DNA of 64,000 bases from Candidatus Micrarchaeota archaeon. Its GTDB lineage: Archaea > Micrarchaeota > Micrarchaeia > Norongarragalinales > Norongarragalinaceae. The stretch's first letter is position 1. Each line of letters opens with the position of its first letter. The stretch spans positions 32,001 through 96,000 of the forward strand of contig JACQQD010000009.1 of NCBI GenBank assembly GCA_016207165.1. The letters run 5' to 3'. This document shows, in pieces, positions 7,701 to 23,546 of the stretch. The notes under the pieces are model-generated. The model was not told the DNA's origin. It searched no databases and saw only the letters and a list, made by a program, of their open reading frames with translations. The translations under genes were made by a program, and so were the position numbers.

Positions 7701-10700
7701 GCGCCCCAGGCCGCTTCGGCGGGTGCGCCGGGCACGGCCGTTGAGGGCCACGCGCTGTTGTTGGTTCCGGCCAATGAGGGACTTCAGTGGTTGAACATCA
7801 CCAAGTCTTTGGGCAACCAGGCCACCGTTCTTTCCCGCGTCATCACGTTGGATGGCGGCGTATCGTTTAACGGTTCTTCGCCATTCCCGCCGGGTTGGGA
7901 CACGTGCAACGGCTTCGTGGGAATCCAGTACGACCCTTCCAAGAATCCCAAGTTGTCGCTGGGCCAAGGGTGCAGCGATTTGGGTTTCCGCGTCACGCCC
8001 GTGTTTCCGGCGGACGCCGTGTTTTTGAACATGTCGATTCCCGATTTCGGCCGCGTCGTTGCACGCGCGGCGGCCACGGACGGGTCCCATGCATGCTATG
8101 AAGTCTGTGAAATTGACCGCAACGGCTTTGTCTATGGTTGCGAGGGCTTTGGGAAAAGCTTGTTTAACAACGTGCAGTACCTCGTCCGGTACAACCCCGA
8201 GTTGTTGGACGTTTGCCCGTCGGCGTACAAAGTCAAGGGCAACCGGATTGCCGCGTCGCAAATCACGGTGGAGTTCGCGTACACCGGCGACCAGGAAGCG
8301 TCGCGAAACGTGACGTTGCACGTGTTGGCGGACAATTCCGACAAGAGCCTCTACATTTCGCCGGTGTACACCTTTTATGGCTCCAGTTCGGAAGTGCTTT
8401 ACCCTCAGTTGTGGTCGGTGACCAACTACAAGCAACTCGGCAAGCGCAGCATCGTGTTCACTCAGCCTGGCAACATCGCCGTGTCTTTTGACGGTCCGGG
8501 AGTCAAGGTGTTCGCCGTATCCCAGGCGGGAACCGTTCAAGCGTTTGAGGGTTCGGACCGCTCTGCGCCGATTTTCGATTCCGCAAACCCCCAAAGCCCC
8601 GTCAAAACGGTTTCCAAGTACGGAGAGGCGTTGGCGTCCAGCCAACAGCAATTTGACGTGTCCACGCCGTATGCCGAAGCGTTGTCTTCGGCGTTGACGG
8701 AGTCGTTGTCCCAGAACGCGTTTCTTCAAAGCGAAGTCGCCGAAAAATTGAGTGCGTCGGTGCCGAGGGTGGCGGAGCGCACGGCGTATTGGCGCAGCAG
8801 CCAAGTCATTCGCTACTGCCAGCAGTCCCAGGCGTGCGTGGACTCGTATTACACGTTGGACGGCTGTTGCAAGGAATCCGTGGAGGACTGGAAGAATTAC
8901 ACGGTGCGCATCGATTACAGGCAAGAATCCTGCACGTTCTGCAACAACACGTTCAACCCGTCCTGCACCGACACGTCTCTGGAACACCTTCGAGGATACC
9001 TTCAATGCTCCTACGAGGCCACTCCTTCGTCCTCCTTCCAATGCGACCAGCGGTGCACGGCCAAGTCGTTGTTCCCGTTGGACGTGCAGCAGGGCATCGA
9101 CAACCAGTTGGGGGTGGGCGGCACCGGCATCACGTACGACGTGCTTCAAGGCAAGTACCTTTCGTACGGCGACTCCTTGGGCGGGCGCACGTGCCGCGTC
9201 GAGTTCTCTTCGCTCAATGCCTTCGTCAAGCAGGGCACCACGTTTACGTATTACTTGCCTTCGCAGCCCAAAACCGAGGTGCTCAAGGAGGAGTTGGAGC
9301 GTTGCTTGGCCAATGGCGATTGTCCGTTGACGCTCAAACCGTCGGCGAATCCCTCCCCGCTTCCATTTTTAGGGGCCCAACCGGCTCAACTAGTTCAATG
9401 CGTTTCCGATGCCAACCAGGACGGGTTGCATCAATTCAGCGAAAGCGTGGTGGACGCGTCTTGGCAGGTTCAATACCGGCAATTCGGGGGACAAATCGAC
9501 AAGGAGTTCTACAAGTGTCCGGCGGGACGCATTGCGGCGGTGGCGGAAGTCTCGTTTTTCTTTGAGGCGCGCCAGAACGGCGTGATTGCTTCCCGGACGG
9601 TGGCTACGGCGGCGGACATAGAGCGGTGCCGGCAAGGCACTTGTCCTTTTGTGGTCACGCCGCCCAACACGCCGGTTGTAGGAGGAGGCGTGCCCATTTG
9701 TTTTGCGGATTCCAATGGCAACGGTTTTGTTGAAACCAACCGGCAAAGCGAACTGAGTTCTTTACAACCTGCTGTGGCCTCCGGTTTCCAGGGCGGTGTG
9801 TACCAGTGTCCGTCCGGCACGCGGTTGGCCGTGGCGAATTTCTGCGTGTCGTCGTGCGAGAATTATTGTTCGGCGCCCAACTGCGACGCGTCGTTGGCGT
9901 GCCTTTCCAGCGGGGTCAAGAACGTGCCGACGGGCGGGACGGAACGCCTCTTCAACGGGTGGCTCAACGAAAGCCCGGTGGTGCCCGTGAACTTGGATGC
10001 GTCGCATTTGTCGCGTGGCAAACCCAATGTGCCGGCGGCGTGGTTTCCCGACGCGTTTTTGGAATCCGACGGAAAGCCTCTGTTCACGCATTCGTATGTG
10101 GTGAACTCCAAGACTCAGCCCAATTCGGTGGCGTCGTTAACCAAGGTGCTTTCCGTTCAGGGATGCGGGCCGGCGGGGGATTACCCGTACGACCAGACGC
10201 TTCTGCCGGAGCAGGGCCTATATGAAATCAGGGACTACAACGTGTTGGACGTCTCCGGTTCCACGTGGGTGGCTCAAGCCAATGCCGTGACGCTTTTGCG
10301 GCAGAATTACTTGGGGGACAAGTCGGCGGTGTGCCGCAAGCCCCAGTGGGATACGCAGTTGTGTGAGGTGTCGTTTGTGGATTCCTCTTCGCAGTACGGC
10401 GGGTGCTTCAACTCGATTCTGCAGTATCAGGGCTCTTCCAAGAAGTTGGGTGCGGACGTGCCTTTGGTGGGGGGTTTGGGTTACGGCGTCAAGAATGGCG
10501 TAGGCTTTGGCGTGGCGCCCAACGGGCACGCGTTTGCGTTGTTTGAGCCGGGATACGGCGAGGACAAGTGCGAGGACAAGAATAAAGTGCATTATGACTA
10601 TCAGACGTTGAACCACTGGAATCCGGATGGAAAAAACACGGGCGACCGCAAGTTCACGTGGCGGCAGGACTTGGGTTGCCACAGTGATTGCGGGTGCAAG

Positions 10701-11072
10701 AAGGGCGGGTACGGTTTGCTGGCCATTATTTTGGGGATTTTGGTGGCGGCTTTGTTCATTTTCGCTCTGCCGGCTTTGACGGGCGGATACACGGCACTGA
10801 TCATTGGTGGCGCCTCCATCGAGTTTTCCACGATTGGTTTGCTGGCTGGCGCGGCGATAGCTGGCGTGGGTTCCGGTGTGGGAGAGGTGGCTGGGGCGGT
10901 GGCGTCAAGCGTGATTCAGACGGTCAGCCAGGGCGCCATTGGCGTGGATTGCCAGTCGTGGGGTTTCTCGGGAGCGGTGGCGTACGCGTGCAAGGGAACG
11001 ATTTGGCAGATTTCCGCGGGCTTCGTCGCGCTTTTGTCTTGGATTCCCCGAAAGAAAAGGAAAGCCAATTAG
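4728..11072 (+). CDS. Giant (2114 aa) surface protein: N-terminal anchor, carboxypeptidase-regulatory-like beta domains, Cys-rich modules, C-terminal Gly-rich hydrophobic segments
   Basis: Long uninterrupted ORF; TM near residues 50-70; repeated PLDGALVEL/PVSGAQVSV...EGY modules; many Cys and NxS/T sequons. Confidence 0.85.
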   Translation: MLSDLLKPFLRFYFLLEEHYYKGLEAIEEKFSVPVFDSFVDPLESRGIPSFFVVILLFLLLAGSALVVLTQSQPAGLQVLVYGKTSSISGQPLDGALVELSDETGVLDSQKTRRGLVSFENLKSKAYTVRVTKEGFESGQRAANPVESNVVRLELSCQNAQTCAELEALARSGGGGGSVATSTPRPPGSGGGLTPGLTFSNPENGVDPESPVGRLLILVRDEDGNLLEGNAKVYDSKSGALIEDVPVSQGSGVLPSLRVGRKVFVNVFSTGFSPFLGKSKPIVIAPATNKVTVVLEAGGPTLSSGVRVVDPENAPVSGAQVSVYLADHSEVLYSDYSDAEGFVELELGEGSYFAVARAEGYLMNYSPRFEGGDTATIVLPLRGGGPGGGGCDGPCENEAHLNVHAVDDLGVDASYADVVLQQKTDFGSWFVVEPAEYAGASGRVLFTGLVPQSQVQVIATLYDLNGSAQATLVQGLNELEVVLSKPPFQVRAYAVDALANAYVSDARFDALVNGELVGQCQGNGCLLTVISAENVYVNASADGFVSSGNAFYLYEGLDSNVTLYLVNQSALEDVHVQWQGLYGSNGREVSELRPGRMYEARLQVFSKNADATGVVLDTQNDDAPVSGLTPNGFEQKGSYAGSCFAQDADFEYPRQAWVDVRYAGTVNGQVQFNFTLDPDITLDAATKTKVLELAYRAYVVRGSDYLRNPFDASLSTRPHEDHPSGCSGQTAVYVQNVTVKSDSTTCNALGCVTLNFRQGQRFAPTLFEADNQVLFNSTKLDPLYVFYTVEFFSGPTTSTRLVADWPDNRLVFINATHPVVGDSVLGNSKRCEFSDAKKQRSISLWASSLELDLRDLALCSNYAPPTRSRPLRFDGVAYARALEAGSSDVALTLSNGTDSVSQPASFSVSGFGVAANEFGIVEARLSQVQNALPDAAVFPVLSTGECTAAQVAGGTCDVGFVQADYRFTALSNSGFQSDVRASDGLQVHQNAAPQAASAGAPGTAVEGHALLLVPANEGLQWLNITKSLGNQATVLSRVITLDGGVSFNGSSPFPPGWDTCNGFVGIQYDPSKNPKLSLGQGCSDLGFRVTPVFPADAVFLNMSIPDFGRVVARAAATDGSHACYEVCEIDRNGFVYGCEGFGKSLFNNVQYLVRYNPELLDVCPSAYKVKGNRIAASQITVEFAYTGDQEASRNVTLHVLADNSDKSLYISPVYTFYGSSSEVLYPQLWSVTNYKQLGKRSIVFTQPGNIAVSFDGPGVKVFAVSQAGTVQAFEGSDRSAPIFDSANPQSPVKTVSKYGEALASSQQQFDVSTPYAEALSSALTESLSQNAFLQSEVAEKLSASVPRVAERTAYWRSSQVIRYCQQSQACVDSYYTLDGCCKESVEDWKNYTVRIDYRQESCTFCNNTFNPSCTDTSLEHLRGYLQCSYEATPSSSFQCDQRCTAKSLFPLDVQQGIDNQLGVGGTGITYDVLQGKYLSYGDSLGGRTCRVEFSSLNAFVKQGTTFTYYLPSQPKTEVLKEELERCLANGDCPLTLKPSANPSPLPFLGAQPAQLVQCVSDANQDGLHQFSESVVDASWQVQYRQFGGQIDKEFYKCPAGRIAAVAEVSFFFEARQNGVIASRTVATAADIERCRQGTCPFVVTPPNTPVVGGGVPICFADSNGNGFVETNRQSELSSLQPAVASGFQGGVYQCPSGTRLAVANFCVSSCENYCSAPNCDASLACLSSGVKNVPTGGTERLFNGWLNESPVVPVNLDASHLSRGKPNVPAAWFPDAFLESDGKPLFTHSYVVNSKTQPNSVASLTKVLSVQGCGPAGDYPYDQTLLPEQGLYEIRDYNVLDVSGSTWVAQANAVTLLRQNYLGDKSAVCRKPQWDTQLCEVSFVDSSSQYGGCFNSILQYQGSSKKLGADVPLVGGLGYGVKNGVGFGVAPNGHAFALFEPGYGEDKCEDKNKVHYDYQTLNHWNPDGKNTGDRKFTWRQDLGCHSDCGCKKGGYGLLAIILGILVAALFIFALPALTGGYTALIIGGASIEFSTIGLLAGAAIAGVGSGVGEVAGAVASSVIQTVSQGAIGVDCQSWGFSGAVAYACKGTIWQISAGFVALLSWIPRKKRKAN

Positions 11073-11109
11073 CCGGATTTTTGCGTTTTGGGGCGTTGCG
11101 GGTTTTTCC

Positions 11110-12600
11110 ATGGTTTTTTCCGTTTTTTCCCGGTTGGAGAAAAGCAAGGTGGGCGTGGCCCCGCTTTTTTTCGTTCTTTTGTCCGCGGTGCTGGCCCGCA
11201 TCGTCTTGGAGTGGGTTTTGGAGGCGGGCCACCAGTTGCAGTCTCCGGCGTCGTTGTTCTTGTTTTTGTCGTATTTTTCGGTGACGCTTTGCGGCGTCGT
11301 GCTTCTGCTTTGGCTTTTTTCCGGAAAGCCTTTGGTGGGGGTTGTCCGGGTGGTGGCGGGGTTTTCGTGGTTGCTTTGGGTGCCGCCGGTCTTTGACTTT
11401 TTGTGGTCAGGCGGGAAAGGGTATGCTTTGAGTTTCGTGTTTTCCGTCGCCGGCTTTTGGGAGGCTTTTTCCTCGTTTTGCGCGTCGTGCGTGGGGGTTT
11501 CGCCCGGACTTCAAGCCGAGGTTTTCTTGTTGTTGTTCGTCGCTTTCGCTTACGTTTTTTGGGCGTCAAAAAGTCTGTTTCGGGGGGTTTTAGCGGTTTT
11601 GGGGGTGTACGCGTGGGTGCTTTTCGGCGCCTTGTTTCCGGGTTTCTTGATGGGTTTTTTCGGGCATGCGTTCCAGGACGCGTTCTTGTTTAGGGAGACG
11701 TTGTCGGCGTATGCCGTGGCGTTGTCGGCTTTCTTTTTCGCGTTTTTGGCTTCAGACAAGAAAGTGGCGGCCGCGTTCTGGAGCCGGTTGCGGTTGGAGC
11801 GGTCCCTGCATTACGCGGGCGTGGCGTTGTTTGGGGCGGTGTTGGGTTTTTCGTTTTGGGAGCATTCGTTTCCAGGTGTTTTGCTGCCTTTGGCCGCTTT
11901 GCTTTTCAGCGTGTTTTTCGCGTTTGAGGCTGCGGTGTGGGTCAACGACGCCTTCGATGAACGCATTGACCGCATTTCAAGTCCGAAGCGCGTGAAACTG
12001 GCGTCGTTGCTTGAACCTTACCAGGGCTTTTTTCTGGCCGCCTTTTTGGTGTTAAGCTTGGTGGCCGGTTTGGCGGCAGGTTTTGGGGTCTGGTTGTGGG
12101 TGGGCTTTGCCTTGGCGTTGAGCGCCGCGTATTCGGTGCCGCCGCTTCGCCTGCGCTGGCATTTCCTGTCGTCAAGTCTGGTCATCGCCTTGTGTTCCAC
12201 CGTCGTTTTCGTGGCGGGTTTTTCTTTGGGGTTGCTGGAGCCGGAGACCGTGCTTGCGGTGGTGCCGGTGGAGTGGGTAGCCATGGTTTTTGGCTTCGTT
12301 TTCTTGGCGTCGCCTCTGGTCTGCCTCAAGGACGCGGACGGGGATAAAAAGGCGGGGGTATTGACGTTGGCGTCTTGGCTGGGTCTGAGGCGCGCCTGGT
12401 GGGCGGTGTTGGGGTTGACTGTGTCGGCCGTGGCGTGGGCGGCGTATTTCGCGGCGCTTTCCTGGGTTTGGGCGGCGTTGTTTGCCGTGGCGGTGGCGGT
12501 TTGCTTTGTTTGGACGCGGTTTGCCGCCGTCAAGTTGGAGCCGTTGGCGTTTTTGTTGGAGTACGCGTTTCTGGTTGTCGTGGCGTTGCACTTGGTATAG
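11110..12600 (+). CDS. UbiA-family prenyltransferase with extra N-terminal multi-pass membrane domain
   Basis: NDAFDERIDRIS and LKDADGDKKAGVLTL Asp-rich motifs, YSVPPLRLR; ATG 11110 chosen because the upstream extension overlaps the previous gene. Confidence 0.8.
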   Translation: MVFSVFSRLEKSKVGVAPLFFVLLSAVLARIVLEWVLEAGHQLQSPASLFLFLSYFSVTLCGVVLLLWLFSGKPLVGVVRVVAGFSWLLWVPPVFDFLWSGGKGYALSFVFSVAGFWEAFSSFCASCVGVSPGLQAEVFLLLFVAFAYVFWASKSLFRGVLAVLGVYAWVLFGALFPGFLMGFFGHAFQDAFLFRETLSAYAVALSAFFFAFLASDKKVAAAFWSRLRLERSLHYAGVALFGAVLGFSFWEHSFPGVLLPLAALLFSVFFAFEAAVWVNDAFDERIDRISSPKRVKLASLLEPYQGFFLAAFLVLSLVAGLAAGFGVWLWVGFALALSAAYSVPPLRLRWHFLSSSLVIALCSTVVFVAGFSLGLLEPETVLAVVPVEWVAMVFGFVFLASPLVCLKDADGDKKAGVLTLASWLGLRRAWWAVLGLTVSAVAWAAYFAALSWVWAALFAVAVAVCFVWTRFAAVKLEPLAFLLEYAFLVVVALHLV

Positions 12601-12689
12601 CAAGCCAAGAAAGTTTCCCGACTACTTTCTTGGCTTGCTAGACAGCAAGACCGGCCTATTTCGTCGTCTTATTTGCCGGTCTTGCTGTA
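12596..12689 (+). repeat. Double-hairpin element, diverged copy (94 bp)
   Basis: TA-TAGCAAGCCAAGAAAGT/ACTTTCTTGGCTTGCTA-GA-CAGCAAGACCGGC/GCCGGTCTTGCTG-TA; same architecture as the reverse complement of the 14796 and 21703 copies. Confidence 0.85.
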
Positions 12690-12739
12690 AGCTGACAACT
12701 CTTTTAAACGCGGGACTCGTCAAAGGCTTTGGAATCGAA

Positions 12740-13258
12740 ATGGACCTCAAGAAAATCATTCGGGAAATGCTCAAGAAGGGCATGTCCGAAGAGCAGGTCA
12801 AGGACAACCTCCGCGAATTGGGGGTGGAAAATCCCGATGAAGTCTTTGCCGAGGCCACCGAGCAAATGGCGGAGGTTCGGACTCCCGGGCGCTTGCCTCC
12901 GGATTCGCCTCCTGTAAAGCAAAGTGACGTCGGCATGCGGGAAGTCGGTTTATCCCAATCTGAAGAAGAAGGCGGGCACGACTTGTTTGAAGCGGAAGAA
13001 CAGCCCAAGGCCGACAAACCCGGGTTTTCGTTCACGCGCGTTTCCGGCGAAGGCGAACAAGAGGAGCACGTGGGCCGAAGCCGTCCGGCGGCGGAAAGTG
13101 TCGGCGACTTGATGCAGTCCGTCCCGGAAACGTCGCTTTCCGATTTGGATGCCGTGGAGCGGAAACTGGATCAAACCATTGCGTTGTTGGGGGCGCTTAA
13201 AGACGTCAACCAGAAGATTCTACAGGCCCAGCGGGATATATTGTTGCGGCTGAAATAA
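12740..13258 (+). CDS. Hypothetical protein: N-terminal helical module, acidic linker, C-terminal coiled coil
   Basis: MDLKKIIREMLKKGMSEEQVKDNLRELG start; heptad-like C-terminus; TTTTAAA box upstream. Confidence 0.7.
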   Translation: MDLKKIIREMLKKGMSEEQVKDNLRELGVENPDEVFAEATEQMAEVRTPGRLPPDSPPVKQSDVGMREVGLSQSEEEGGHDLFEAEEQPKADKPGFSFTRVSGEGEQEEHVGRSRPAAESVGDLMQSVPETSLSDLDAVERKLDQTIALLGALKDVNQKILQAQRDILLRLK

Positions 13259-13261
13259 CGG

Positions 13262-13684
13262 TTAGTGGTGGTTGTGCCGGGCGTGTTTCTTGATGTGGTC
13301 CAGCTCGCGCTCGATTTTGCTGAATTTTTTGTCGAGGTGGCTTTGCAGTGAGTCGAATTTTGGGTTGATTTTCTTGTGGATGCCGACGTTGCTGTAGTCG
13401 CTGGACAGCATGCTTTGCTCCACCATGCTGTTGACCAGGTGCGTGTAGAAGTTGTGGGCGGGCGAGTGCGTCGAAGTTTGAATGACTACGGGTTGCTGTG
13501 GTGCTAGGTCGATGACGGCTTTGCCGTCGCCCGCGTCCAGAATCGACGGTCCCCGGGAAGCGAAGCGCTCGGAGAGCACCAAGCCCACGGCCAGCAAGAG
13601 AAACGTCAAGACGATCCATTCGATGCCCGACAGGATGCCGACCACGGCTCCACCCAACAAACCGGCCAGCCAGTTGCGTTCCAT
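13262..13684 (-). CDS. Small membrane protein
   Basis: Two N-terminal hydrophobic helices; PVVIQ motif; abuts neighbouring genes. Confidence 0.75.
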   Translation of the reverse strand: MERNWLAGLLGGAVVGILSGIEWIVLTFLLLAVGLVLSERFASRGPSILDAGDGKAVIDLAPQQPVVIQTSTHSPAHNFYTHLVNSMVEQSMLSSDYSNVGIHKKINPKFDSLQSHLDKKFSKIERELDHIKKHARHNHH

Positions 13685-14059
13685 TTAGTGTCCCCCGTCT
13701 TTTTTGGGCGGGCGCAAGCCGAAGATCCATTGGACCAAAAAGTTGCCGACGTTGTGCCAAGCGGAACCGAAGTTGAAAAACGAGTACTCGAATTGCCGGT
13801 AGTCATGCCAGTCGTTTTTCAATTTAAACTTGATGAGTTTGGGCACGTCCGGCATCTTGTTTTCCACGATGATGGGGCCTTCAGGGCCATAGGGCTCCGA
13901 AATCTTGAGGTTGGCGGGCCCCGCGTCCTTCTTGGAGAAGCTGGAACTCAACAGCGCCAAGACCATCAAGGCAAAAACCAGTACCGCCAGAAACGTCAAC
14001 CCGCTTTGAAGGAAGAAAAAGCCGAGGGCCGCCAACACCAAGATCAAGACGAGGTTCAT
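13685..14059 (-). CDS. Small membrane protein (paralogue of 14063-14422)
   Basis: Two TM helices then PIIV...P..IK.....W motif and amphipathic C-terminal helix. Confidence 0.75.
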   Translation of the reverse strand: MNLVLILVLAALGFFFLQSGLTFLAVLVFALMVLALLSSSFSKKDAGPANLKISEPYGPEGPIIVENKMPDVPKLIKFKLKNDWHDYRQFEYSFFNFGSAWHNVGNFLVQWIFGLRPPKKDGGH

Positions 14060-14062
14060 GGC

Positions 14063-14422
14063 TTAGTGGTCACCTGCCTGTGTTTTTCCTGTTTTTCCGG
14101 TGATGATGCGGGCTACGATGCGAAAGGGCCAGGCCACCGCTCCACCCAAGTACGTCAAGAAGTCCGAGTAGCCGTCGGAGCCGTCCCAGGTGTGCTTGGC
14201 CGCAAGTTTGATGGTGTCGGGAATGGCGCCGCCGGAACTCGTCACGATGATGGGGCGCTGTTTTTGCGCGGCGGAAAGACCGGCGGCCCCCGATGGCGCG
14301 GTTTTGGACGTGAGGGCGCTGAGGATGCCGACGAGAAACACGACCAACGCGACGAACGGCAGGCCGACTTCCAACAAAACGTAGGCGATGCCGAACAACA
14401 AGGCGACGACGATTAAACTCAT
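14063..14422 (-). CDS. Small membrane protein (paralogue of 13685-14059)
   Basis: Two TM helices then PIIV...PDTIK...TW motif. Confidence 0.75.
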   Translation of the reverse strand: MSLIVVALLFGIAYVLLEVGLPFVALVVFLVGILSALTSKTAPSGAAGLSAAQKQRPIIVTSSGGAIPDTIKLAAKHTWDGSDGYSDFLTYLGGAVAWPFRIVARIITGKTGKTQAGDH

Positions 14423-14458
14423 GGGATAATGGTAAGGGGGTTTGCGGTTAAAAACCGT

Positions 14459-14770
14459 TTAGCCGTACATGCCGCCGCCGGGCATGTAGCCTTGGGGCGC
14501 CGGGTTGTCGCTGTCTTGGCGGGCCAAAAGCAGCATGATCAGAAACAGTCCGCCCAGGACCGCCAGGGTGACGGGGTTGTCCAGGGACGACGAAAACCCG
14601 CCCAAGCTGACGATGGCCACCAGTGCGCCGCCGATGACGGTGGCGATGAGCAGATACTTGCTTTTGGAGGTAAACACCAGGATCACTAAAAGGGCGATGG
14701 CGACGAGGTCCAAGCCGCTTTTGAGCGCCAAAAGCATGAGGATGATGATGAACAGGAACGTGAAATCCAT
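14459..14770 (-). CDS. Small multi-pass membrane protein
   Basis: About four hydrophobic segments and a Gly/Pro/Met tail. Confidence 0.75.
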   Translation of the reverse strand: MDFTFLFIIILMLLALKSGLDLVAIALLVILVFTSKSKYLLIATVIGGALVAIVSLGGFSSSLDNPVTLAVLGGLFLIMLLLARQDSDNPAPQGYMPGGGMYG

Positions 14771-14795
14771 GCCAGAACTACGCGGACCGCGTTTT

Positions 14796-14890
14796 TATAG
14801 CAATCCCCGAAAGCAACGCGACAAAATAGTCGGGGATTGCTATCTAGCAAACGGCGCGAAAGTTTCGGGAAACTTTCGCGGTTTGCTATA
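14796..14890 (-). repeat. Double-hairpin element (95 bp) with TATAGCAA/TTGCTATA inverted ends
   Basis: 93/95 identical to 21703-21797, both differences in a loop; two long stems. Confidence 0.95.
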
Positions 14891-14899
14891 ATGGTCCCG

Positions 14900-15217
14900 C
14901 TAGAGGTCGTGGGTGTTGGCTTCATAGGGCTGGCCGAAGCCACCCTTGGACTCCGTGACGCTCAAGGGCTCGGTGAGGCCCCACTCCCAGGGGCGGAAGC
15001 CCCAGAAGAATCCGTAACTAAACAAGCCCAAGAACATGATCCACTTGACGATGGGGTACGGAATGACTAAAACGAACGTGATGACGATGGTTACAAGCAA
15101 CGCGACGACTTTGTTGTTGATGATTTCCGGGTAGAAAAGCCGCGAATACATCATGAAAAAAACGATGAGGGTAGCCACGAAGTCGAAGGCCTCCAAAAGG
15201 GCAAGCGGCGCCGCCAT
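14900..15217 (-). CDS. Small membrane protein
   Basis: Three hydrophobic segments; ATG at 15217 follows an AT-rich promoter region. Confidence 0.7.
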   Translation of the reverse strand: MAAPLALLEAFDFVATLIVFFMMYSRLFYPEIINNKVVALLVTIVITFVLVIPYPIVKWIMFLGLFSYGFFWGFRPWEWGLTEPLSVTESKGGFGQPYEANTHDL

Positions 15218-15224
15218 GGATGAT

Positions 15225-15247
15225 TTTAAAGGACAGCAACCTTTAAA
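15225..15247. promoter_or_regulatory. Palindrome TTTAAAGG-N7-CCTTTAAA in a divergent promoter region
   Basis: Perfect 8-bp inverted repeat between divergent genes, overlapping TATA-like boxes. Confidence 0.4.
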
Positions 15248-15316
15248 TATAATGTTACCACCCATTAGTGTAAATAACTTTGTCGGGGCTCTTTTCGGGC
15301 CAAAAAGGATTGTTCC

Positions 15317-15610
15317 ATGGGTCTGGACACCACCACGGAAACCGCGTGGATGCTCATGACGTTCGCCCTGGTGCTGGGCTTTCTGTCAGCGGGGCCCATC
15401 AGCGATTCGCCGTTTGTGTGGGCGCCGGCCATGCTTATCACCGTTCCTTTTAACGCCTACATCGCGTTTGCCGACGGGTTTCCGCTCTTGGCGCCCCTGT
15501 TCTTTCTGGCCTTCATCTATTACTTCTTGAAGATCCTGGATCCAGCCGTGGGACAAGGCCTAGTCATGTTCATCGTGTTTGCCGTTCTGGCCGTATTGAC
15601 GGGCCTATAG
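15317..15610 (+). CDS. Small multi-pass membrane protein
   Basis: Highly hydrophobic 97-aa ORF. Confidence 0.7.
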   Translation: MGLDTTTETAWMLMTFALVLGFLSAGPISDSPFVWAPAMLITVPFNAYIAFADGFPLLAPLFFLAFIYYFLKILDPAVGQGLVMFIVFAVLAVLTGL

Positions 15611-15650
15611 CGGCAATAGGTTTTTCTTTTCCCTCCTTCTTTTGTTTTCC

Positions 15651-16265
15651 ATGAAGCCCAGTCCCCTTCACGCGCTTTGGGCCCTGTCCGCCCGCGCCAT
15701 GGCCTCTTCCGTCGAGCTTTCCGCCACCTTGGGCGTCTCCCAACAGACGGCATCTCGGTGGCTGTCCGAACTGGTTGACGAAGGATTCATTGAACGCGCC
15801 GCCGGCGCCTACCGCGTGACAAACGCCGGAAGGAAATACCTCCAGCAGTTGTCCCCGCAGGCGCCCAAGCAGATCACGGGCCGCGTCTTCACGGGTCTGG
15901 GAGAAGGCCGCTACTACCTGTCCCAAAAAGGCTACCAAGACCAGTTCGAGGCTTTGCTGGGTTTCAAGCCGTACCCGGGCACCTTGAACCTGCGCCTGGA
16001 TGACGCGGAAAACCGGCAGGCCAACGTGGCTCTGCGCGCCCAACCGGGCCGGTACCTGCGTGGCTTTTCCGTCAAGGAGCGGACCTTTGGCGGGGCCCGC
16101 TGCTATGCCTGCCGCATCAGTGGCCGCCACCTTGGCGCCGTGATCGTTCCGGAGCGCACGCACTACCCTGAGGACGTGGTCGAGCTTTTGTCGCCTTTCT
16201 TCCTTCGCAAAAAGCTGGGCCTCAAAGACGGCGACGCCATCCGCGTTGTACTCAAAAACGAGTAA
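15651..16265 (+). CDS. ribK: CTP-dependent riboflavin kinase with N-terminal wHTH (RbkR-type)
   Basis: ELSATLGVSQQTASRWL HTH; GRVFTGLGEGRYY, PYPGTLN, PERTHYP, LRKKLGLKDGD. Confidence 0.93.
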   Translation: MKPSPLHALWALSARAMASSVELSATLGVSQQTASRWLSELVDEGFIERAAGAYRVTNAGRKYLQQLSPQAPKQITGRVFTGLGEGRYYLSQKGYQDQFEALLGFKPYPGTLNLRLDDAENRQANVALRAQPGRYLRGFSVKERTFGGARCYACRISGRHLGAVIVPERTHYPEDVVELLSPFFLRKKLGLKDGDAIRVVLKNE

Positions 16266-16325
16266 CTACCTTTTTTTGGGTAACGCTTTTATTGGACCGC
16301 GGCCTAAATGCGTCGGGGACTTTTT

Positions 16326-16787
16326 GTGGCCAAACCAAGAATTGCCGTAGTCGACACCACGTTTTCCAGGGTGGACATGGGCGCCTTGGCGCTTTTGGCG
16401 TTGAAGGAGTTTGACGTGGACACCGTTCGCGTGACGGTTCCAGGAATCAAGGACTTGGCCGTCGAGTGCAAGCGCCAACTGGATGCGGGAGCCGACGTTG
16501 CTTTGGCTTTGGGCATGGTGGGCGGCGCGGACATTGACCGCCAATGCGCGCACGAGGCGTCCCTGGGAATCCAGTTTGCCAAGCTGTTGACCAACAAGCA
16601 CATCGTCGAGGTGTTCGTGCACGAAAAAGAGGCCCGAAACGAATCCGATTTGAAGTCTTTGTTTGTCGACCGCACCCAAAAACATGCCGAGAATGCGGCG
16701 CGCCTGGTCTTGCAGCCCGATTGGTTCACCCGACGCGCGGGAAAAGGACTGCGTCAGGGCCGCGACGACGTGGGGTCCATTTCATGA
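16326..16787 (+). CDS. ribC: Riboflavin synthase, archaeal type (lumazine synthase paralogue)
   Basis: VDTTFSRVDMG, TVPGIKDL, HEASLG, HIVEVFVHEKEA, AGKGLRQG; start may be GTG 16326 or ATG 16308. Confidence 0.92.
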   Translation: MAKPRIAVVDTTFSRVDMGALALLALKEFDVDTVRVTVPGIKDLAVECKRQLDAGADVALALGMVGGADIDRQCAHEASLGIQFAKLLTNKHIVEVFVHEKEARNESDLKSLFVDRTQKHAENAARLVLQPDWFTRRAGKGLRQGRDDVGSIS

Positions 16788-17248
16788 ACGAGTTTGAGCG
16801 CGTGGGTTTGGCCGTCAAGCAGAATGCCCAAAAGCCGGTTCGCGTGGCCATTGTCCGCTCGCTTTTCCGGGATGACTTGACGCAGGCCATGGAGGCCTTG
16901 GTGCGAACGCGTGCGCCGGAATTGAACGCGGAAATCACGGAAACTTTTTTGGCCCGGGGAGTCCTGGAAACGCCTTTTCTGGCTCGCCACGCCTTTCAGG
17001 ACGAAGCGGTGGACGCGGTGGTGGTCCTGGGCGTAGTCATTCGGGGGGAAACGGACCATGACCGCGTGGTGGTGGAACACGCCACCCGCGCCTTGGTGGA
17101 GTTGAGCTTGAAATCGGGAAAGCCGGTGGGCGTGGGAATCATCGGGCCCGGCGTAAGTCTGGGGGGCGCGGAAAAAAGAGTGACGGAGTATGCAACCGGC
17201 GCATTGGATGCCGTGGTGTGCTCCTGGAATTCGGTGCATGGACGATGA
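16784..17248 (+). CDS. ribH: 6,7-dimethyl-8-ribityllumazine synthase
   Basis: DAVVVLGVVIRGETDHD, KPVGVGIIGPG; ATGA overlap with ribC. Confidence 0.9.
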   Translation: MNEFERVGLAVKQNAQKPVRVAIVRSLFRDDLTQAMEALVRTRAPELNAEITETFLARGVLETPFLARHAFQDEAVDAVVVLGVVIRGETDHDRVVVEHATRALVELSLKSGKPVGVGIIGPGVSLGGAEKRVTEYATGALDAVVCSWNSVHGR

Positions 17249-18453
17249 ACGAAGGGATGGCCAACGCGTTGCAGGATTTGCGGGAAGGCAACATGGTGGT
17301 GTTGGTGGACGCCCACCGGGAAGCCGAGGGAGACGTGATGATGGCCGCGCAGAAGGCTAGGCCCGAGGACTTGGCGTTCATGCTGCGGCACGCACGCGGA
17401 TTCATTTGCATGACCTTGCGCGAGTCGCGGAGAAAAGAGTTGCGCATTTCCCGGATGGTGCCGCACAACACGGACCGCTTCCAGACGCCGTTTCTGGTTT
17501 CCGTTGGCGCGAAAACAGGTGGATCCGGCACGTCGGTGCACGACCGCCTCCAAGCGGCCAAACACGTCATGGATCCGGCGACCCATCAGGACGACTTGAC
17601 GGTTCCAGGCCACTTGCACCTTCTTTCCGCGAAGGATGACGGCGTTTTGTCGCGTTTAGGGCATACCGAGGCGGCCACGGACTTGGTGGCATTGGCGGGT
17701 TTGTCGCCGTACGCGTTTGTGTGCGAAATCATGAACGACGACGGCTCCATGGCCGACGCTTCCCAACTGAGGGCTTTTGCTGAAACGCATGGCTTGTCCA
17801 CGGTGACTTTGGAGGACGTGGTGGCATTGCGCAAGACCCATGTCCTTCCTGTTCAAGCCGATGCGCCTTGCTGCGTGGCGCGCGTGTCCGAGGCCAAACT
17901 TCCAACTCCTTTTGGCGACTTCACCATCTACGCGTATCGCGACGATGTGGAGTCAAAGACGCACTTGGCGTTGGTCAAGAAACCGCTTGGAAAACCTGTT
18001 TTCGTGCGGATGCATTCCAAGTGCGTCACCGGCGACGCGCTTTTTTCGGCGCGCTGCGATTGCGGGCCTCAACTGGAAGCCGCGTACCGCGTCATTTCAA
18101 AAAAGGGCGGCGTGATTCTGTATTTGGACCAGGAGGGCCGCGGCATCGGCTTGGAAAACAAGATCAAGGCGTACGCCTTGCAGGATGGGGGTTTGGATAC
18201 AGTGGAGGCCAACCACCAACTGGGCTTGCCGGTGGATGCGCGAGAGTACGCGGCGGCCGCGTGCATGTTGTTGGACCTCGGCATTTCGTCGGTGACGTTG
18301 TTGACGAACAACCCGCTGAAAGTCCGGGGCCTGGAGAAAAACGGGGTGGCGGTGGCCCAACGCGTTGCGCTGGAGACGGCGCCCACGCCCCAGAACCGTT
18401 CGTATCTGTCCACGAAGAAATCCAAGTTGGATCACGCGTTGACCAAGTTATGA
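17245..18453 (+). CDS. ribBA: Bifunctional DHBP synthase / GTP cyclohydrolase II (bacterial type)
   Basis: REAEGD, GHTEAATDL, CEIMNDDGSMA; RMHSKCVTGD...RCDCG, QEGRGIGL, LLTNNP. Confidence 0.95.
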   Translation: MNEGMANALQDLREGNMVVLVDAHREAEGDVMMAAQKARPEDLAFMLRHARGFICMTLRESRRKELRISRMVPHNTDRFQTPFLVSVGAKTGGSGTSVHDRLQAAKHVMDPATHQDDLTVPGHLHLLSAKDDGVLSRLGHTEAATDLVALAGLSPYAFVCEIMNDDGSMADASQLRAFAETHGLSTVTLEDVVALRKTHVLPVQADAPCCVARVSEAKLPTPFGDFTIYAYRDDVESKTHLALVKKPLGKPVFVRMHSKCVTGDALFSARCDCGPQLEAAYRVISKKGGVILYLDQEGRGIGLENKIKAYALQDGGLDTVEANHQLGLPVDAREYAAAACMLLDLGISSVTLLTNNPLKVRGLEKNGVAVAQRVALETAPTPQNRSYLSTKKSKLDHALTKL

Positions 18454-19523
18454 ACGACGCGGACTTCATGCGCCACGCGATTTCTTTGGCTCAAAACGTG
18501 TACCGCGCGTCGCCCAATCCGCGGGTGGGCTGCGTCCTTGTAAAAGACGGAAACATCATTGGGAAGGGCTTTCACGCCAAGCATGGGGGTCCGCATGCTG
18601 AGGCGGTGGCTTTGGAAGAAGCCGGGGTCAACGCCGCTGGCTCCACGGCGTTTGTGTCGTTGGAGCCGTGCGCGCACGCCGACAAGAAGACGCCGCCGTG
18701 CGCGCAGGCGTTGGTCCGTGCCGGCGTGTCGCGCGTGGTGGTGGGGGTGTTGGACGCCAACCCCAAAGTCAACGGACGCGGCATCGCGTTTCTCAAGGAA
18801 AACGGCGTGGCCGTGACGGAAGGCGTTTTGGAGGCCGAGGCGCTGGAAGTCAACCGGTTTTTTTTCAAATCCGTTTCCCTTCAGCGTCCGTGGGTGACGT
18901 TGAAGATGGCCTCCACCCTGGATGGAAAAATTTCGTCGTCGTCTCCGTGGCTGTCCAATGCGTCCTCGCGGAGAATCGTGCAGCGCCTGCGGGCGGAGCA
19001 TGATGCGGTGCTGGTGGGCAAGAACACGGTGTTAAGCGATGACCCGATGCTTTCGTGTCGGCTTCCCGATGCACTTCAGCCTTTGAAAGTCGTGGTGGAC
19101 TCCACGCTTCAGTGCCCATTGGATGCCCGCGTGTTTGCATCGGGCAACGCCGTTGTGGCCTGCACGACTCAGGCTCCCCTGGATCGCGTGGAGGCTTTCC
19201 GAGAAAAGGGGGTGGCGGTTTGGGTGCTGCCGAAATGCCCGCAGGGAGTTGACTTGGAGGCGTTGGTGAAGCGGTTGGGCGAGCAAAACGTGTTGAGTGT
19301 CTTTGTGGAAGGCGGGGGAAGGCTGGCATCTGCTTTTTTGGACTTGGATTTGGTGGACGAAGCCTACTTTTTCGTGGCGCCGCTTTTGGCGGGATCCGAT
19401 GCGGTGCCGTTGTATTCTTGTAAAAAGGAGAAGCGATTTGCAGGTGCTTTGGTGGCGGTGGTGGACGACGACGCGTGTTTCCGCGTGCGTCTACCCGCTG
19501 TAAAACCAGGCCATGACCAATAG
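18450..19523 (+). CDS. ribD: Bifunctional pyrimidine deaminase / reductase (bacterial type)
   Basis: PNPRVGC, HAE, LEPCAH...PPC Zn motif; ASTLDGKI, VEGGG. Confidence 0.95.
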   Translation: MNDADFMRHAISLAQNVYRASPNPRVGCVLVKDGNIIGKGFHAKHGGPHAEAVALEEAGVNAAGSTAFVSLEPCAHADKKTPPCAQALVRAGVSRVVVGVLDANPKVNGRGIAFLKENGVAVTEGVLEAEALEVNRFFFKSVSLQRPWVTLKMASTLDGKISSSSPWLSNASSRRIVQRLRAEHDAVLVGKNTVLSDDPMLSCRLPDALQPLKVVVDSTLQCPLDARVFASGNAVVACTTQAPLDRVEAFREKGVAVWVLPKCPQGVDLEALVKRLGEQNVLSVFVEGGGRLASAFLDLDLVDEAYFFVAPLLAGSDAVPLYSCKKEKRFAGALVAVVDDDACFRVRLPAVKPGHDQ

Positions 19524-19592
19524 GAAGGGAAACAGCCGCCAGAAGAAGGCTTCGGGCTTGTCTCCCAGGATGTGGACGGCGTGTTTCAGCAT
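19491..19592 (-). CDS. Candidate 33-aa membrane microprotein MLKHAVHILGDKPEAFFWRLFPFLLVMAWFYSG
   Basis: Not in the ORF track; follows the 19612-20007 stop, GGGAG upstream, one hydrophobic helix; overlaps ribD 3' end. Confidence 0.4.
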   Translation of the reverse strand: MLKHAVHILGDKPEAFFWRLFPFLLVMAWFYSG

Positions 19593-19611
19593 CGGGTTTG
19601 GCGTCTCCCTG

Positions 19612-20007
19612 TCAGCGTCTGTTTTTCTTTGCCTCGGTTTTCCTGGTCTTGGTTTTTTTCTGGTGCATGCCTAAAAGGGCGGCGGCTTGTTGTTCGAAGT
19701 GCTTGGCCAGCCGGCGCACCCCCAACATGAATTCGCCTTCGTACAATCCAGCCAAGGCGATGACGCCGAAGGCCACGCCGATGCCGAACCACTCGAAGAT
19801 GCGGTCTGACAAGATCACGGGTTTTCCGCGCAGCTCGTCGAAAAACGTGACGGGATACCGCCACTGGAGGTACTCGTAGACGAGGAACATGGCGGCGGCG
19901 ACCACCAGGATGACCAGCAACCTCCATTTGAGGTTGAACAGCTGCACGCGCTGGTGGTGCGCGATCTTGTAGAAGGACGCGTACTTTTTCAGGCGTTTAA
20001 GGGGCAT
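19612..20007 (-). CDS. Small membrane protein with Lys-rich tail
   Basis: Two TM segments; tightly packed with neighbours. Confidence 0.7.
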   Translation of the reverse strand: MPLKRLKKYASFYKIAHHQRVQLFNLKWRLLVILVVAAAMFLVYEYLQWRYPVTFFDELRGKPVILSDRIFEWFGIGVAFGVIALAGLYEGEFMLGVRRLAKHFEQQAAALLGMHQKKTKTRKTEAKKNRR

Positions 20008-20313
20008 TTAGCGGATTCCTCCGGGTTGGGTTTGTTTGGGTTGTGGAGTCAGGGTGTTGAACAGCATGGTGAACGTCGGCAACATGAACAGAAGCCCGCT
20101 GGTTAATAAAATCCACCCGAACACGCCGAGGCTGCCGATGAGGGGGTGCTCGATGACCAAAAAGTAGACGACGATGCCGGACACCACCAGGGTGAGAAGC
20201 GGGGAGAAGGCCAGTTTTTCCCGGACCCAGGAGTACCACCACCATCCCACGAAAAACAGGATCAGCCACTTGCCGATTTCCAGCCAGAATCCGATGTCGT
20301 CCAAGAGTCCCAT
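20008..20313 (-). CDS. Small membrane protein
   Basis: Three TM segments, WWWYSWVREKL. Confidence 0.75.
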   Translation of the reverse strand: MGLLDDIGFWLEIGKWLILFFVGWWWYSWVREKLAFSPLLTLVVSGIVVYFLVIEHPLIGSLGVFGWILLTSGLLFMLPTFTMLFNTLTPQPKQTQPGGIR

Positions 20314-20320
20314 GTTCACG

Positions 20321-20797
20321 TCACGATTGCATCAGTTGCATGCGCTGCATTTGCTGGAGTTGCTGGTTGCCGCCGCCGGACACCTGGTTTTGCGCCATTT
20401 GTTGCTGGAACCACTCCATCTCTTGCTGGCTGGCGTGGCCCCGCTCGATTTGTTCTTGGACGCGCTGCATTTTGGCCTGCATCTTGCGGGGGTCCGTCTC
20501 TTCGGCGGACGCCAGCCGGTCGCCCATCACGTGGTATCCCAGCAACGGAAACAAGCCGAACCACATGACTTGCTGGATTTGCATGCCGAACAAGAACAAG
20601 AACACGAACGCGGCCGTCAAAAGCACCACGGAAACGCCGTGGATGAAGATCAGAAAGCCGGTGACGGTGGCCGTGATGCCGAACAAAAGGGGCAAGTCGC
20701 GAAACGTCATGTACAGCCAGAACAAAATGTAGGTAAACGACAGGATTTGAACGACGAAACCCAGTTCCGCCAAGGTCTCGAAAATGCCCAGGACCAT
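20321..20797 (-). CDS. Membrane protein with Gln/Met-rich C-terminal tail
   Basis: 3-4 TM segments then QQQMAQNQ...QQLQQMQRMQLMQ. Confidence 0.75.
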   Translation of the reverse strand: MVLGIFETLAELGFVVQILSFTYILFWLYMTFRDLPLLFGITATVTGFLIFIHGVSVVLLTAAFVFLFLFGMQIQQVMWFGLFPLLGYHVMGDRLASAEETDPRKMQAKMQRVQEQIERGHASQQEMEWFQQQMAQNQVSGGGNQQLQQMQRMQLMQS

Positions 20798-20833
20798 GAA
20801 CGGTGTTACGCGTTTCCCACTTAAAAGAGTTGC

Positions 20834-21676
20834 TTACTTCTTTTTCCCCTTGCTTTTCGGCGGCGGCTTTTGGAGGGCTTCCTCGTATTGTGCAAGGGCG
20901 GCCAAGTCTTTTTTGTCCATGGTCTCGTCCCTCTTCATTTTTCCAAGCGCGTCTTTTTTTTCACGGTCCGTGACGGGGCGCATCAACCCCCTGCGGACCA
21001 TTTCGCTGGCGGGGTCCTTGGCGTTGCCCAAGGCCCTGGCTTTGGCGGGGTTGACGTGCCGGAATCCGTCCATGACTTCGTTGAACGCGGATGGATCGAT
21101 GCGGTCCTCTTCTTCCGAGGCCATGCCCAAGCGCCGGATGGCGTTTTGGATGTGCGCGTCAAGCGGGTCCTCTTCGCGTCCCATGGTGCGCAGGTCGTCT
21201 TTGGTGACGAAATTCAGGTTCGCCCTGGCGATACCCTCGCGCTGCTCGGCGTTGGGGTGGACTTGCGTCACCAATACCGGATAGGCGTTGCCGTGTTGCG
21301 CGTGGGCCAAAAAGGCCACGGCCATCTCACGCCCAAGCGCCTTGAATTCCTCCAATGTTTCGCGGTGTCTTTCCGCGTTGGCGTCGCCCTCCTCGGCATC
21401 CGGAATGTGGTAGTCGGACAAAACGATGTGCGCTGGCTGGTTCTTCAGGTGTTCCAAGGCGTCGGCAATGGTTCGTACCCCGTGAAGCTTGACAACCAGG
21501 TTGGCATGCCCGTGTTGCCTGCCCCATTGTTCAATTCTTTTTTTGCGGTTCCGAAACCATTCCCGTATCCGGTCCAATTCGTAGTCCTCGTTTTCCACGT
21601 GCAATACGTGAAGCACTTTAGGCGGTTCTTCCATTTCCCTCATTCGTCGCTGGAGTTCTTCCCGGCCTGGAGCCAT
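20834..21676 (-). CDS. Receiver (REC)-domain protein with uncharacterised C-terminal region
   Basis: VLHVENE acidic pocket, IVLSDYHIPD (phospho-acceptor Asp), VLVT and FVTK in canonical order. Confidence 0.65.
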   Translation of the reverse strand: MAPGREELQRRMREMEEPPKVLHVLHVENEDYELDRIREWFRNRKKRIEQWGRQHGHANLVVKLHGVRTIADALEHLKNQPAHIVLSDYHIPDAEEGDANAERHRETLEEFKALGREMAVAFLAHAQHGNAYPVLVTQVHPNAEQREGIARANLNFVTKDDLRTMGREEDPLDAHIQNAIRRLGMASEEEDRIDPSAFNEVMDGFRHVNPAKARALGNAKDPASEMVRRGLMRPVTDREKKDALGKMKRDETMDKKDLAALAQYEEALQKPPPKSKGKKK

Positions 21677-21702
21677 AACGGGTTACTGGATTGTTCGGGT
21701 TT

Positions 21703-21797
21703 TATAGCAATCCCCGAAAGTAACCCGACAAAATAGTCGGGGATTGCTATCTAGCAAACGGCGCGAAAGTTTCGGGAAACTTTCGCGGTTTGCTATA
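21703..21797 (-). repeat. Double-hairpin element (95 bp)
   Basis: Near-identical to 14796-14890. Confidence 0.95.
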
Positions 21798-21811: not shown

Positions 21812-22258
21812 TCAAACCAATCGCCTTCCAAAGAACACGGCGACCCACACCACGAGCGCCAGAATCAAGAGCATGGCGCTTTTCTGGGCGTACTGTTTCC
21901 ATCGGCCGTCGCCCTGGTAGTCCTTGAGCAGGCCTTGGCCGAGGTACGTGGCAGACAACGCGACGATGACTTGCGGTAGCGCGAAAGCCAGGTACGTGGC
22001 GTCCACGGAGCCGGCGCTGTAAAGCGATGCGAACTTGGCCGCCTCGATTCCCAACGCCAACGGGGCGGAAAAACCGAAGAAAAGCGCGCTGAACACGAAG
22101 ACGAAGGTGAGGCTCAATAGTTCGCTTTGCACGTCGTTGGGGACAAACGCGTACGGCGGCTCCAATTGGATGGCTTGCGGCTGGCTCAAGTTGAATCCGT
22201 ACACCGCGAAAAAAACGCCGCAAAACACGATGACTGAAAACAACGCAATCCATTTCAC
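21812..22258 (-). CDS. Small multi-pass membrane protein
   Basis: Four hydrophobic segments; start overlaps the stop of the DUF424-like gene. Confidence 0.7.
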   Translation of the reverse strand: MKWIALFSVIVFCGVFFAVYGFNLSQPQAIQLEPPYAFVPNDVQSELLSLTFVFVFSALFFGFSAPLALGIEAAKFASLYSAGSVDATYLAFALPQVIVALSATYLGQGLLKDYQGDGRWKQYAQKSAMLLILALVVWVAVFFGRRLV

Positions 22259-22572
22259 AGGTAGTACACCTGGACGTGCGGCACTCCGGCGATTTTCTTG
22301 ACCGCCGACTTGTTGATGGGTAACGCCGAGAGAGCCGCTTGAACCGCTTTTTCGCCGACCACGTTGATGTTGCGCGCCTGCCGAAGCATCTCTCCGGCTT
22401 CCGCCGCCGTCACCGCGGTTCCTTCGTAGAATCCCCGGTAGGTCTTCAAGTCAATCACGGCGTCGCCTTGACGCAACACCTTGCCTAAAAGTGTGCGGTC
22501 GCATACCGCGGTCACCGACTTCTTGACGCCGTGGCCGTCCCGGCGTTCATGGATTTTGGCGACGAGGCTCAC
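22255..22572 (-). CDS. DUF424-family protein
   Basis: AKIHER...AVCDRTLLGK...FYEG...NVVGEKAV...IAGVPHVQ; GTG start overlaps the upstream stop. Confidence 0.85.
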   Translation of the reverse strand: MSLVAKIHERRDGHGVKKSVTAVCDRTLLGKVLRQGDAVIDLKTYRGFYEGTAVTAAEAGEMLRQARNINVVGEKAVQAALSALPINKSAVKKIAGVPHVQVYYL

Positions 22573-23486: not shown

Positions 23487-23546
23487 GATGGTTGGGTAAC
23501 GCCGTTGAACTTTTTAAACGGATGCGGGGGGGAGTCGGGTAACGGT

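Follow-up and report, generated by a model that had tools for sequence, protein, structure and literature searches.

The SM elements of Sulfolobus, reportedly described by Redder and colleagues in 2001, are said to be archaeal miniature inverted-repeat transposable elements (MITEs), one class of which stems from an IS630-family element with TA as its target. According to the account in PMC2229807, prokaryotic MITEs are shorter than 200 bp and non-coding, carry terminal inverted repeats with 5'-TA-3' termini, show a target-site duplication and have a parent insertion sequence (IS). Here we analyze a double hairpin that occurs in three copies in a stretch of 64,000 nucleotides from the genome of a tiny groundwater archaeon, a Candidatus Micrarchaeota archaeon (genome G000, contig C9, positions 32001-96000; this whole stretch is called the window). 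A first-pass annotation of the window had proposed either a mobile unit resembling MITEs and repetitive extragenic palindromic (REP) sequences or a structured RNA of 3' untranslated regions (3'-UTRs). The three copies are probably members of a family of mobile, non-autonomous DNA elements of Micrarchaeota that are MITE-like and have a modular build similar to bacterial interspersed mosaic elements (BIMEs) and REP doublets forming hairpins (REPINs). The first half of the proposal is supported, since copies are dispersed, have TA ends, face empty sites in relatives, are patchily distributed and resemble each other between species far more than the genes do; the RNA half is not supported. The family agrees with the description of MITEs in being small and non-coding, in having inverted repeats and in ending with TA, and a parent IS with matching ends was found neither in G000 nor in the relatives examined.

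Double hairpins in the window and in the genome

The copies lie at the coordinates and on the strands reported in the first-pass annotation. They are listed here with their hairpin units; R1 is a covariance model built from 27 units of G000.

12596..12689, plus strand: copy 1, a 94-bp doublet with TA at both borders
12598-12640, inverted orientation: first unit of copy 1, 17-bp stem and shortened loop (R1 match G000:C9:44598-44640)
12643-12687, after GA: second unit of copy 1, 13-bp stem and 19-nt loop (R1 match G000:C9:44643-44687)
14796..14890, minus strand: copy 2, a 95-bp doublet with TA at both borders
14845-14888: degenerate unit of copy 2, with a self-paired loop and a 2-nt bulge
14798-14842: other unit of copy 2, 13-bp stem and 19-nt loop
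21703..21797, minus strand: copy 3, a 95-bp doublet with TA borders, units at 21752-21795 and 21705-21749

Over their 95 nt, copies 2 and 3 have 97.9% identity, with differences at 2 positions. Copy 1 follows the same plan with other stem letters, GACCGGC/GCCGGTC replacing TCCCCGA/TCGGGGA and CAGCAA/TTGCTG replacing TAGCAA/TTGCTA, which confirms the compensatory swap noticed earlier. As single-stranded DNA, each copy folds into two adjacent perfect hairpins with energies of -32.4 to -35.2 kcal/mol; the means of shuffled sequences were -8.5 to -11.7 kcal/mol (z -8.9 to -11.7), and none of 200 shuffles folded as well. The opposite strand of each copy folds equally well. The observation of a double hairpin in three copies is real and lies far beyond chance.

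A count of three, as given in the first-pass annotation, is too low for the genome: G000 (1.27 Mb in 12 contigs, 56% G+C, estimated to be 90% complete) holds 46 hairpin units at 29 loci, as determined with blastn, a hairpin scan and nhmmer. R1 gave 66 matches in G000 at E<=0.1, palindromic sites being counted on both strands. A unit (43-46 nt, G+C 0.30-0.53) consists of YAGCAA, a 7-nt variable arm, a conserved loop of 17-19 nt, the complementary arm and TTGCTR, and contains a perfect 13-bp inverted repeat. Two main loop types are present, CTATTTTGTCGGGTTACTT-like and CTATTCGTCGTGAAATTT, the first having the consensus CTATTnnGTCGGGwwACTT. The commonest element is a doublet of 90-95 bp (about 91 bp for the presumed mobile form of two inverted units and the GA between them), in which TA is followed by an inverted unit, GA, a second unit and TA. 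Its ends read YAGCAA-N7-AAGTnnCCGAC inward from either side, so that the terminal inverted repeats are hairpins in themselves. The TA-bounded inverted-repeat ends seen in the window are general: TA is found on both sides of all three copies and of 26 of the 27 complete elements in G000, and TA ends are also present in the relatives inspected. None of the G000 elements contains an internal open reading frame (ORF). Further forms in G000 are single units, truncated remnants and long forms of 149-205 bp, which have extra small hairpins nested in the loop, in the stem or between units.

Covariation of the stems was determined with two alignments. Among 27 units of G000 (23 distinct), 99.7% of the cells pair, a fraction that is partly built in, as the units were chosen for no more than 2 arm mismatches. 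Both-sided changes are present in 7 of the 13 pairs, and the covariation score is 0.538 compared to 0.154 after shuffling, with none of 500 shuffles reaching that value; sliding the partner by 1-3 columns lowers pairing to 24-50%. A second, independent set comprised 87 matches of R1 (73 distinct) at loci in other genomes; both its selection and its alignment came from a model in which pairing is rewarded, and some of its sites are included on both strands. Here 97.1% of the cells pair and all 13 pairs show covariation, with a score of 0.521 compared to 0.132. G-U or U-G pairs occupy 1 of 299 cells in the first set and 16 of 942 in the second, in agreement with the earlier suggestion that stems made of Watson-Crick pairs hint at recognition of DNA. 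The near-exclusive Watson-Crick pairing, the equal folding of both strands and the facing units of a doublet argue for DNA rather than RNA, and point to a conservation of the hairpins that acts at the DNA level.

Long forms with a nested module lie outside the window at G000:C7:5930-6077, C7:33181-33328, C8:128003-128207 and C12:35217-35367. The module consists of two mini-hairpins (8-10-bp stems, 3-5-nt loops) linked by GCATGC, has TGA...TCA-like ends and sits in the loop or stem without obvious duplication. Its mini-hairpin stems show compensated variation too, and GCATGC with two flanking hairpins occurs at 4 of 455 genome sites, which are exactly these four long forms. A 200-bp composite, likewise outside the window (G000:C1:46982-47181), has four extra perfect hairpins between two end units. 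On the metagenome contig L109 (12288-12470), and also on L111, L113 and L115, four consecutive units form two doublets with one common TA, an arrangement that is expected if a new copy enters the TA beside an old one.

Distribution and insertion at TA

Searches with R1 (E<=0.01) detected the family in 13 of 68 genomes of the order, the remaining 55 being without it. Match numbers in carriers were 75 (G001), 40 (G009), 28 (G002), 20 (G064), 14 (G035) and 10 (G030). The plan of TA, hairpin, linker, hairpin and TA recurs in other families of the order with other stem-base words, and the loop sequence is kept across these families. When one genome of each prokaryote species was scanned for the exact pattern, matches were confined to 10 stretches in 3 assemblies, all titled Candidatus Micrarchaeota archaeon. 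Exact-pattern matches were present in 32 metagenome contigs; there were none in viral contigs and none in phage and plasmid records. In a sample of 151 genomes of the phylum (E<=1e-4), a single genome outside the order matched, and weakly: G174, from another order of the same class, has 58-nt R1 matches in six places (for example C54:34107-34164; E 5e-6 to 9e-5), which may represent a distant, longer-looped variant. Element copies of genus-mates are 88-94% identical, compared to 65-72% for flanking genes (81% in one stretch), from which we infer that the family has probably spread recently.

The genes and boxes next to the window copies are the following.

10939..12600, plus strand: UbiA-family ORF of 553 amino acids (aa), whose stop codon at 12598-12600 coincides with the first TAG in copy 1
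14900..15265, minus strand: 121-aa ORF upstream of copy 2, hydrophobic as judged by eye, stop 9 nt before the element
14459..14770, minus strand: 103-aa ORF downstream of copy 2, ATG at 14770
14792..14799, minus strand: TATAAAAA box formed by the terminal TA of copy 2 together with the adjoining TA and AAAA of the host, beginning 29 nt before the ATG at 14770
21812..22258, minus strand: 148-aa ORF upstream of copy 3, hydrophobic as judged by eye, stop 14 nt before the element
20834..21676, minus strand: 280-aa ORF downstream of copy 3, ATG at 21676
21700..21706, minus strand: TATAAAA box formed by the end of copy 3 together with the adjoining TA and A's of the host, beginning 30 nt before the ATG at 21676

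Copy 1 is therefore the copy that supplies a TAG, as had been claimed for one of the three. The first-pass annotation had also suggested looking for empty orthologous sites with a single TA. Empty sites were found in G001, G002 and G009, and a single TA is consistent with the data at a few sites. The site of copy 1 is empty in the genus-mates G001 and G002, whose UbiA orthologues extend 6 residues more; removal of the element and one TA from the G000 sequence lets the ORF read on to ...LHLVS*. At the site of copy 2, no element is present in G002 or in G009, a member of another genus. G001 carries a different element in this spacer, which begins at the stop codon, 9 nt upstream of the start of the G000 copy; its inverted orientation, other start position and other stem base (TAGTCG/CGACTA) indicate an independent insertion. 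When the element and one TA are removed from G001, the sequence reads GAC TTA TAG CGT and the stop falls exactly at the stop position of G000, G002 and G009, an alignment that is lost if both TAs, or neither, are retained. The site of copy 3 is empty in G001 and G002. Outside the window, at G000:C7:19815, an ORF of 983 codons ends inside an element; this site is empty in G001, G002 and G009, and removal of the element and one TA yields ...PTQTRT*, next to ...PAQTT* in G001. These sites fit a duplication of TA on insertion, as does the metagenome contig on which two doublets have one TA in common; the duplication is supported, though not proven, at these few sites and would apply to the others by extension. 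Reconstruction of stop codons over all elements did not separate models of duplication, as flanks are often A-rich and spurious ORFs common.

At 31 of 54 ends the TA is adjoined by T (on the far side, by A), compared to a genome frequency of T of 0.22, which argues for T-TA-A as the preferred target. In a genome with 56% G+C such targets cluster in TAA and TAG stop codons and in the TATA boxes of leaderless genes, which accounts for copies lying directly after stops or about 28 nt before starts. A TAG or TAA supplied by an element ends several ORFs, among them ORFs of 983, 561 and 529 codons.

Mobility and competing explanations

If the elements are mobile MITE-like DNA, as we consider probable, a copy would insert at TA, preferably T-TA-A, and TA would then be present on both sides. 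With ends of the form ...TTGCTA-TA and TA-TAGCAA..., insertion would rebuild a TATA-like box for the neighboring gene and would give a truncated ORF an in-frame TAG or TAA; the rebuilt box and the supplied stop could make insertions tolerable. Movement would be catalyzed in trans by an enzyme that was not found in this assembly, and a TA duplication favors a DDE transposase of the IS630/Tc1-mariner type. The strict pairing of the arms may reflect a step in which the ends are folded as single-stranded hairpins, or a templated correction within the palindromes. Palindromes can be corrected by template switching.

Several points weigh against this reading, in addition to the selection of the alignments and the crude gene calls that are mentioned with the respective counts. 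No transposase gene was found in the window, as noted before, and none in G000, where Y1_Tnp, DDE_3, the TnpB zinc-ribbon domain, DDE_Tnp_1 and rve were without match. DDE_3 is present in 9 of the 68 genomes of the order, in 3 of the 13 carriers and in none of 25 genomes of the family to which the high-copy genomes belong. Y1_Tnp occurs in 18 of the 68 genomes but in just 2 of the 13 carriers. None of the transposase genes examined has an R1 match at E<0.01 next to it, and an IS630/Tc1 or HUH transposase flanked by the same ends, for which the first-pass annotation had suggested a search, was not found among them. Variable arms that are perfectly compensated are unlike what would be expected for sequence-specific binding of inverted repeats by a transposase, and three single units (C8:17799, C8:76446 and C8:150024) have non-pairing arms from different stem types. 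An element that has its own TA and inserts beside another TA cannot be told apart from a TA duplication. The empty sites come from species that are 30% diverged and not from the same lineage. The sequencing runs listed as containing the stretch are four DNA runs of one study, with no RNA run among them. Their metagenome contigs end at copies and none joins across an element, and insertion polymorphism was accordingly not seen; contigs break at repeats, so this result is uninformative.

Metagenome-assembled genomes often lose multi-copy IS elements, plasmids and viruses, which makes the absence of an enzyme here weak evidence; DDE_3 was not detected in G000, G001, G002, G009, G030 and G035, genomes that are 71-90% complete. 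Large repeats were not found in G000. The IS elements of relatives were rejected as parents, their inverted repeats being unrelated to YAGCAA. An IS630-type element of G052 with DDE_3 (L077:1399-2495, 1097 bp) has inverted repeats beginning with TATAGATAACTGCG, of which the first five letters (TATAG) alone are common to the hairpin elements; this is only a lead. In G041, a weak R1 match (E 0.04) next to an IS630 copy turned out to be a separate hairpin just outside the IS end (L079:1322-1369; 13-bp stem, 20-nt loop, unrelated sequence). The ORF at G000:C12:35423-36028, which lies between two elements, was considered as a partner resembling a REP-associated tyrosine transposase (RAYT) and was discarded, as by eye it resembles an S-adenosylmethionine (SAM) methyltransferase; its homologues in relatives are just 36-45% identical and were of no use for empty-site comparison. 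An autonomous copy was not seen in the metagenome contigs L105, L114, L117 and L103 either, where the ORFs between spaced units look ordinary by eye (for example a P-type-ATPase-like ORF of 860 aa).

It is conceivable, although rather doubtful, that the machinery reads folded hairpins and not sequence, being an enzyme outside the known transposase families or one carried by an unbinned virus or plasmid. The compensated arms would then be a by-product of hairpin-templated copying or repair, and the elements would also be portable gene-boundary cassettes of a reduced archaeal genome, which supply genes reading out of them with a TATA box and genes reading into them with a stop codon and thereby reshape promoters and C-termini in DPANN archaea.

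REP- or BIME-type elements, whose hairpins are cut and moved as single-stranded DNA by an HUH Y1 transposase of the RAYT or IS200/IS605 kind and whose alternating units form BIMEs or REPINs, would explain part of the data, and yet we regard this origin as unlikely. The units alternate in orientation as in BIMEs, both strands fold equally with G-U pairs nearly absent, and complementary changes keep the palindromes intact, as described for REPs by Nunvar et al. (PMC2817692). However, Y1_Tnp is missing from G000, G001, G002, G009, G030 and G064, none of four Y1 genes fetched from relatives has a neighboring R1 match, and the GT(A/G)G head is absent next to the palindrome, the units beginning with TA-YAGCAA. 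In the description of PMC2817692, IS200/IS605 elements have neither inverted repeats nor such duplications, whereas TA stands on both sides here, and RAYTs were found in proteobacterial lineages only.

About equally improbable is a DNA signal that serves the host and is kept by selection and spread by recombination instead of transposition; examples would be a portable promoter, a TATA module, a palindrome bound by protein or a cruciform site. In its favor, the loop is conserved across families of the order, copies are more conserved than genes, and the ends make TATA(A)-like boxes at the usual -32 to -25 for several genes. Among 444 long ATG-started ORFs of G000, an AT-rich peak is present at -32 to -25 and a second peak nearer to the start is absent, which suggests that the peak is the TATA box and that most G000 genes may be leaderless with a canonical TATA box. 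At copies 2 and 3, at C9:27419 and at C8:150024, an element end is found 27-32 nt ahead of an ATG, the apparent enrichment at TATA positions being a rough estimate from crude ORF calls. On the other hand, orthologous promoters already carry TATAAAAA and work without an element: G001 and G009 have it at the same distance from the orthologous start with no element adjoining, which argues that the insertion landed in the box and rebuilt it. Furthermore, none of five sites compared between relatives is common to them in the same form, copies are also located where genes end convergently and within the 3'-terminal parts of ORFs, and most genomes of the order (55 of 68) do without the family.

A cis-acting structured RNA of 3'-UTRs, serving as stabilizer, processing site or terminator, is very improbable. 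The hairpins are very stable, their stems covary, and the three window copies are co-directional with the flanking genes, at 0 nt (copy 1), 9 nt (copy 2) and 14 nt (copy 3) from the preceding stop codon. The statement of the first-pass annotation that copies are always co-oriented right after a stop codon is thus correct for the window. It does not hold genome-wide, where both orientations and every gene context occur: where a long open frame ends no more than about 60 nt from a doublet, it is co-oriented with the sense strand defined in that annotation in about 6 cases and anti-oriented in about 8, and a minimum of 5 doublets are located between genes that start divergently, away from any gene end (counts of orientation and context are from crude ORF-based gene calls). 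The pattern in the window is a small-sample effect of the T-TA-A preference for stop codons and TATA boxes. Moreover, the G001 element at the site of copy 2 is inverted, the units of a doublet face opposite ways and give the same hairpins from either strand, G-U pairs are almost missing, and Rfam gave no match to a catalogued family: at the gathering score there was none in the whole window, and at E<=1 only mir-1255 (E 0.21; 22 bits, the gathering score being 63). H/ACA-like double-hairpin small RNAs, CRISPR repeats and integron attC sites were discarded, as arrays, an internal pocket loop and a match in Rfam are all lacking.

The window has further features apart from the elements. A 2114-aa ORF at 4728-11072 (plus strand), whose sole Pfam match is a carboxypeptidase regulatory-like domain, is likely a large surface protein. 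DUF424 is an archaeal family; in a 431-aa ORF at 22255-23550 (minus strand) it is confined to the C-terminal residues 345-430, the remainder being unassigned, and the start may be over-extended. Two stretches of about 700 bp at 27261-27956 and 28579-29274, 1.3 kb apart and 72% identical, are probably paralogous genes, with a third relative on contig C12. At 17679-18346, the summed contig depth is raised several-fold in four metagenome runs, with many loose ends at 17722, 17754 and 18130, which suggests a conserved gene segment common to other community members.

Significance and comparison with known repeat systems

DPANN archaea have very small genomes and few recognizable mobile elements, yet the lineage studied here has dozens of near-identical hairpin repeats, the positions of which differ between close relatives. 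The family is a ready marker of strain-level rearrangement in uncultured Micrarchaeota, and its repeats are a likely cause of breaks between assembly contigs. It offers a natural experiment on the tolerance of insertions at TATA boxes and stop codons in leaderless archaeal genes. It is unusual for an element that duplicates TA to combine a conserved loop with arms that vary and yet stay strictly complementary, and this combination raises the question of what the enzyme recognizes; interest would be higher if the missing enzyme proved unusual. Among the best-ranked literature matches (15 of 194 and 8 of 9), there was no description of such repeats in Micrarchaeota or DPANN archaea.

Like the SM elements of Sulfolobus, which are said to be moved in trans by IS transposases, the family consists of non-autonomous archaeal elements. 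The SM elements are reportedly deletion derivatives of resident IS elements, whereas no parent IS was found here and the architecture is a pair of hairpins.

The Rickettsia palindromic elements (RPEs), as described in PMC2229807, are likewise palindromic repeats of host-dependent organisms with small genomes, and they share the lack of a known transposase and the tolerance in or near coding regions. Unlike the family, RPEs are single long stem-loops of 105-146 bp that often lie in frame inside genes, and their TA ends are inconsistent (PMC2229807).

REP, BIME and REPIN sequences, in the description of Nunvar et al. (2010; PMC2817692), resemble the family in being short compensated palindromes with alternating composites, high copy number and intergenic location; composites of this kind are present here as doublets and as the four-unit array of L109. 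Unlike REP/RAYT systems, the family has no GT(A/G)G head, has TA on both sides and conserved loops of 18-19 nt, and lives in an archaeal host; its high-copy genomes have no RAYT or Y1 gene, and no rayt gene flanked by two inverted units was found in them.

The Correia (NEMIS) elements of Neisseria and the RUP elements of Streptococcus pneumoniae, according to PMC2229807, are similar in several respects: the common form is shorter than 200 bp and non-coding with terminal inverted repeats, the termini are TA with an apparent TA duplication, and elements are mostly intergenic, are also fused to the ends of ORFs and occur in short and long forms. In addition, the ends of Correia elements can form promoter-like boxes (PMC2649163). 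RUP has a partner in IS630-Spn1 (PMC2229807), whereas no IS with matching ends was found for the family. The comparison with Correia and RUP was made by description and not by sequence. In contrast to both, each terminal repeat is a perfect 13-bp hairpin with a conserved loop, there are two hairpins and not a single long stem that runs from end to end, variation of the arms is strictly compensated, the family is not A+T-rich, and the host is a DPANN archaeon. The repeats form a real family of probably mobile, TA-flanked double hairpins within one order of Micrarchaeota that had not been catalogued before.

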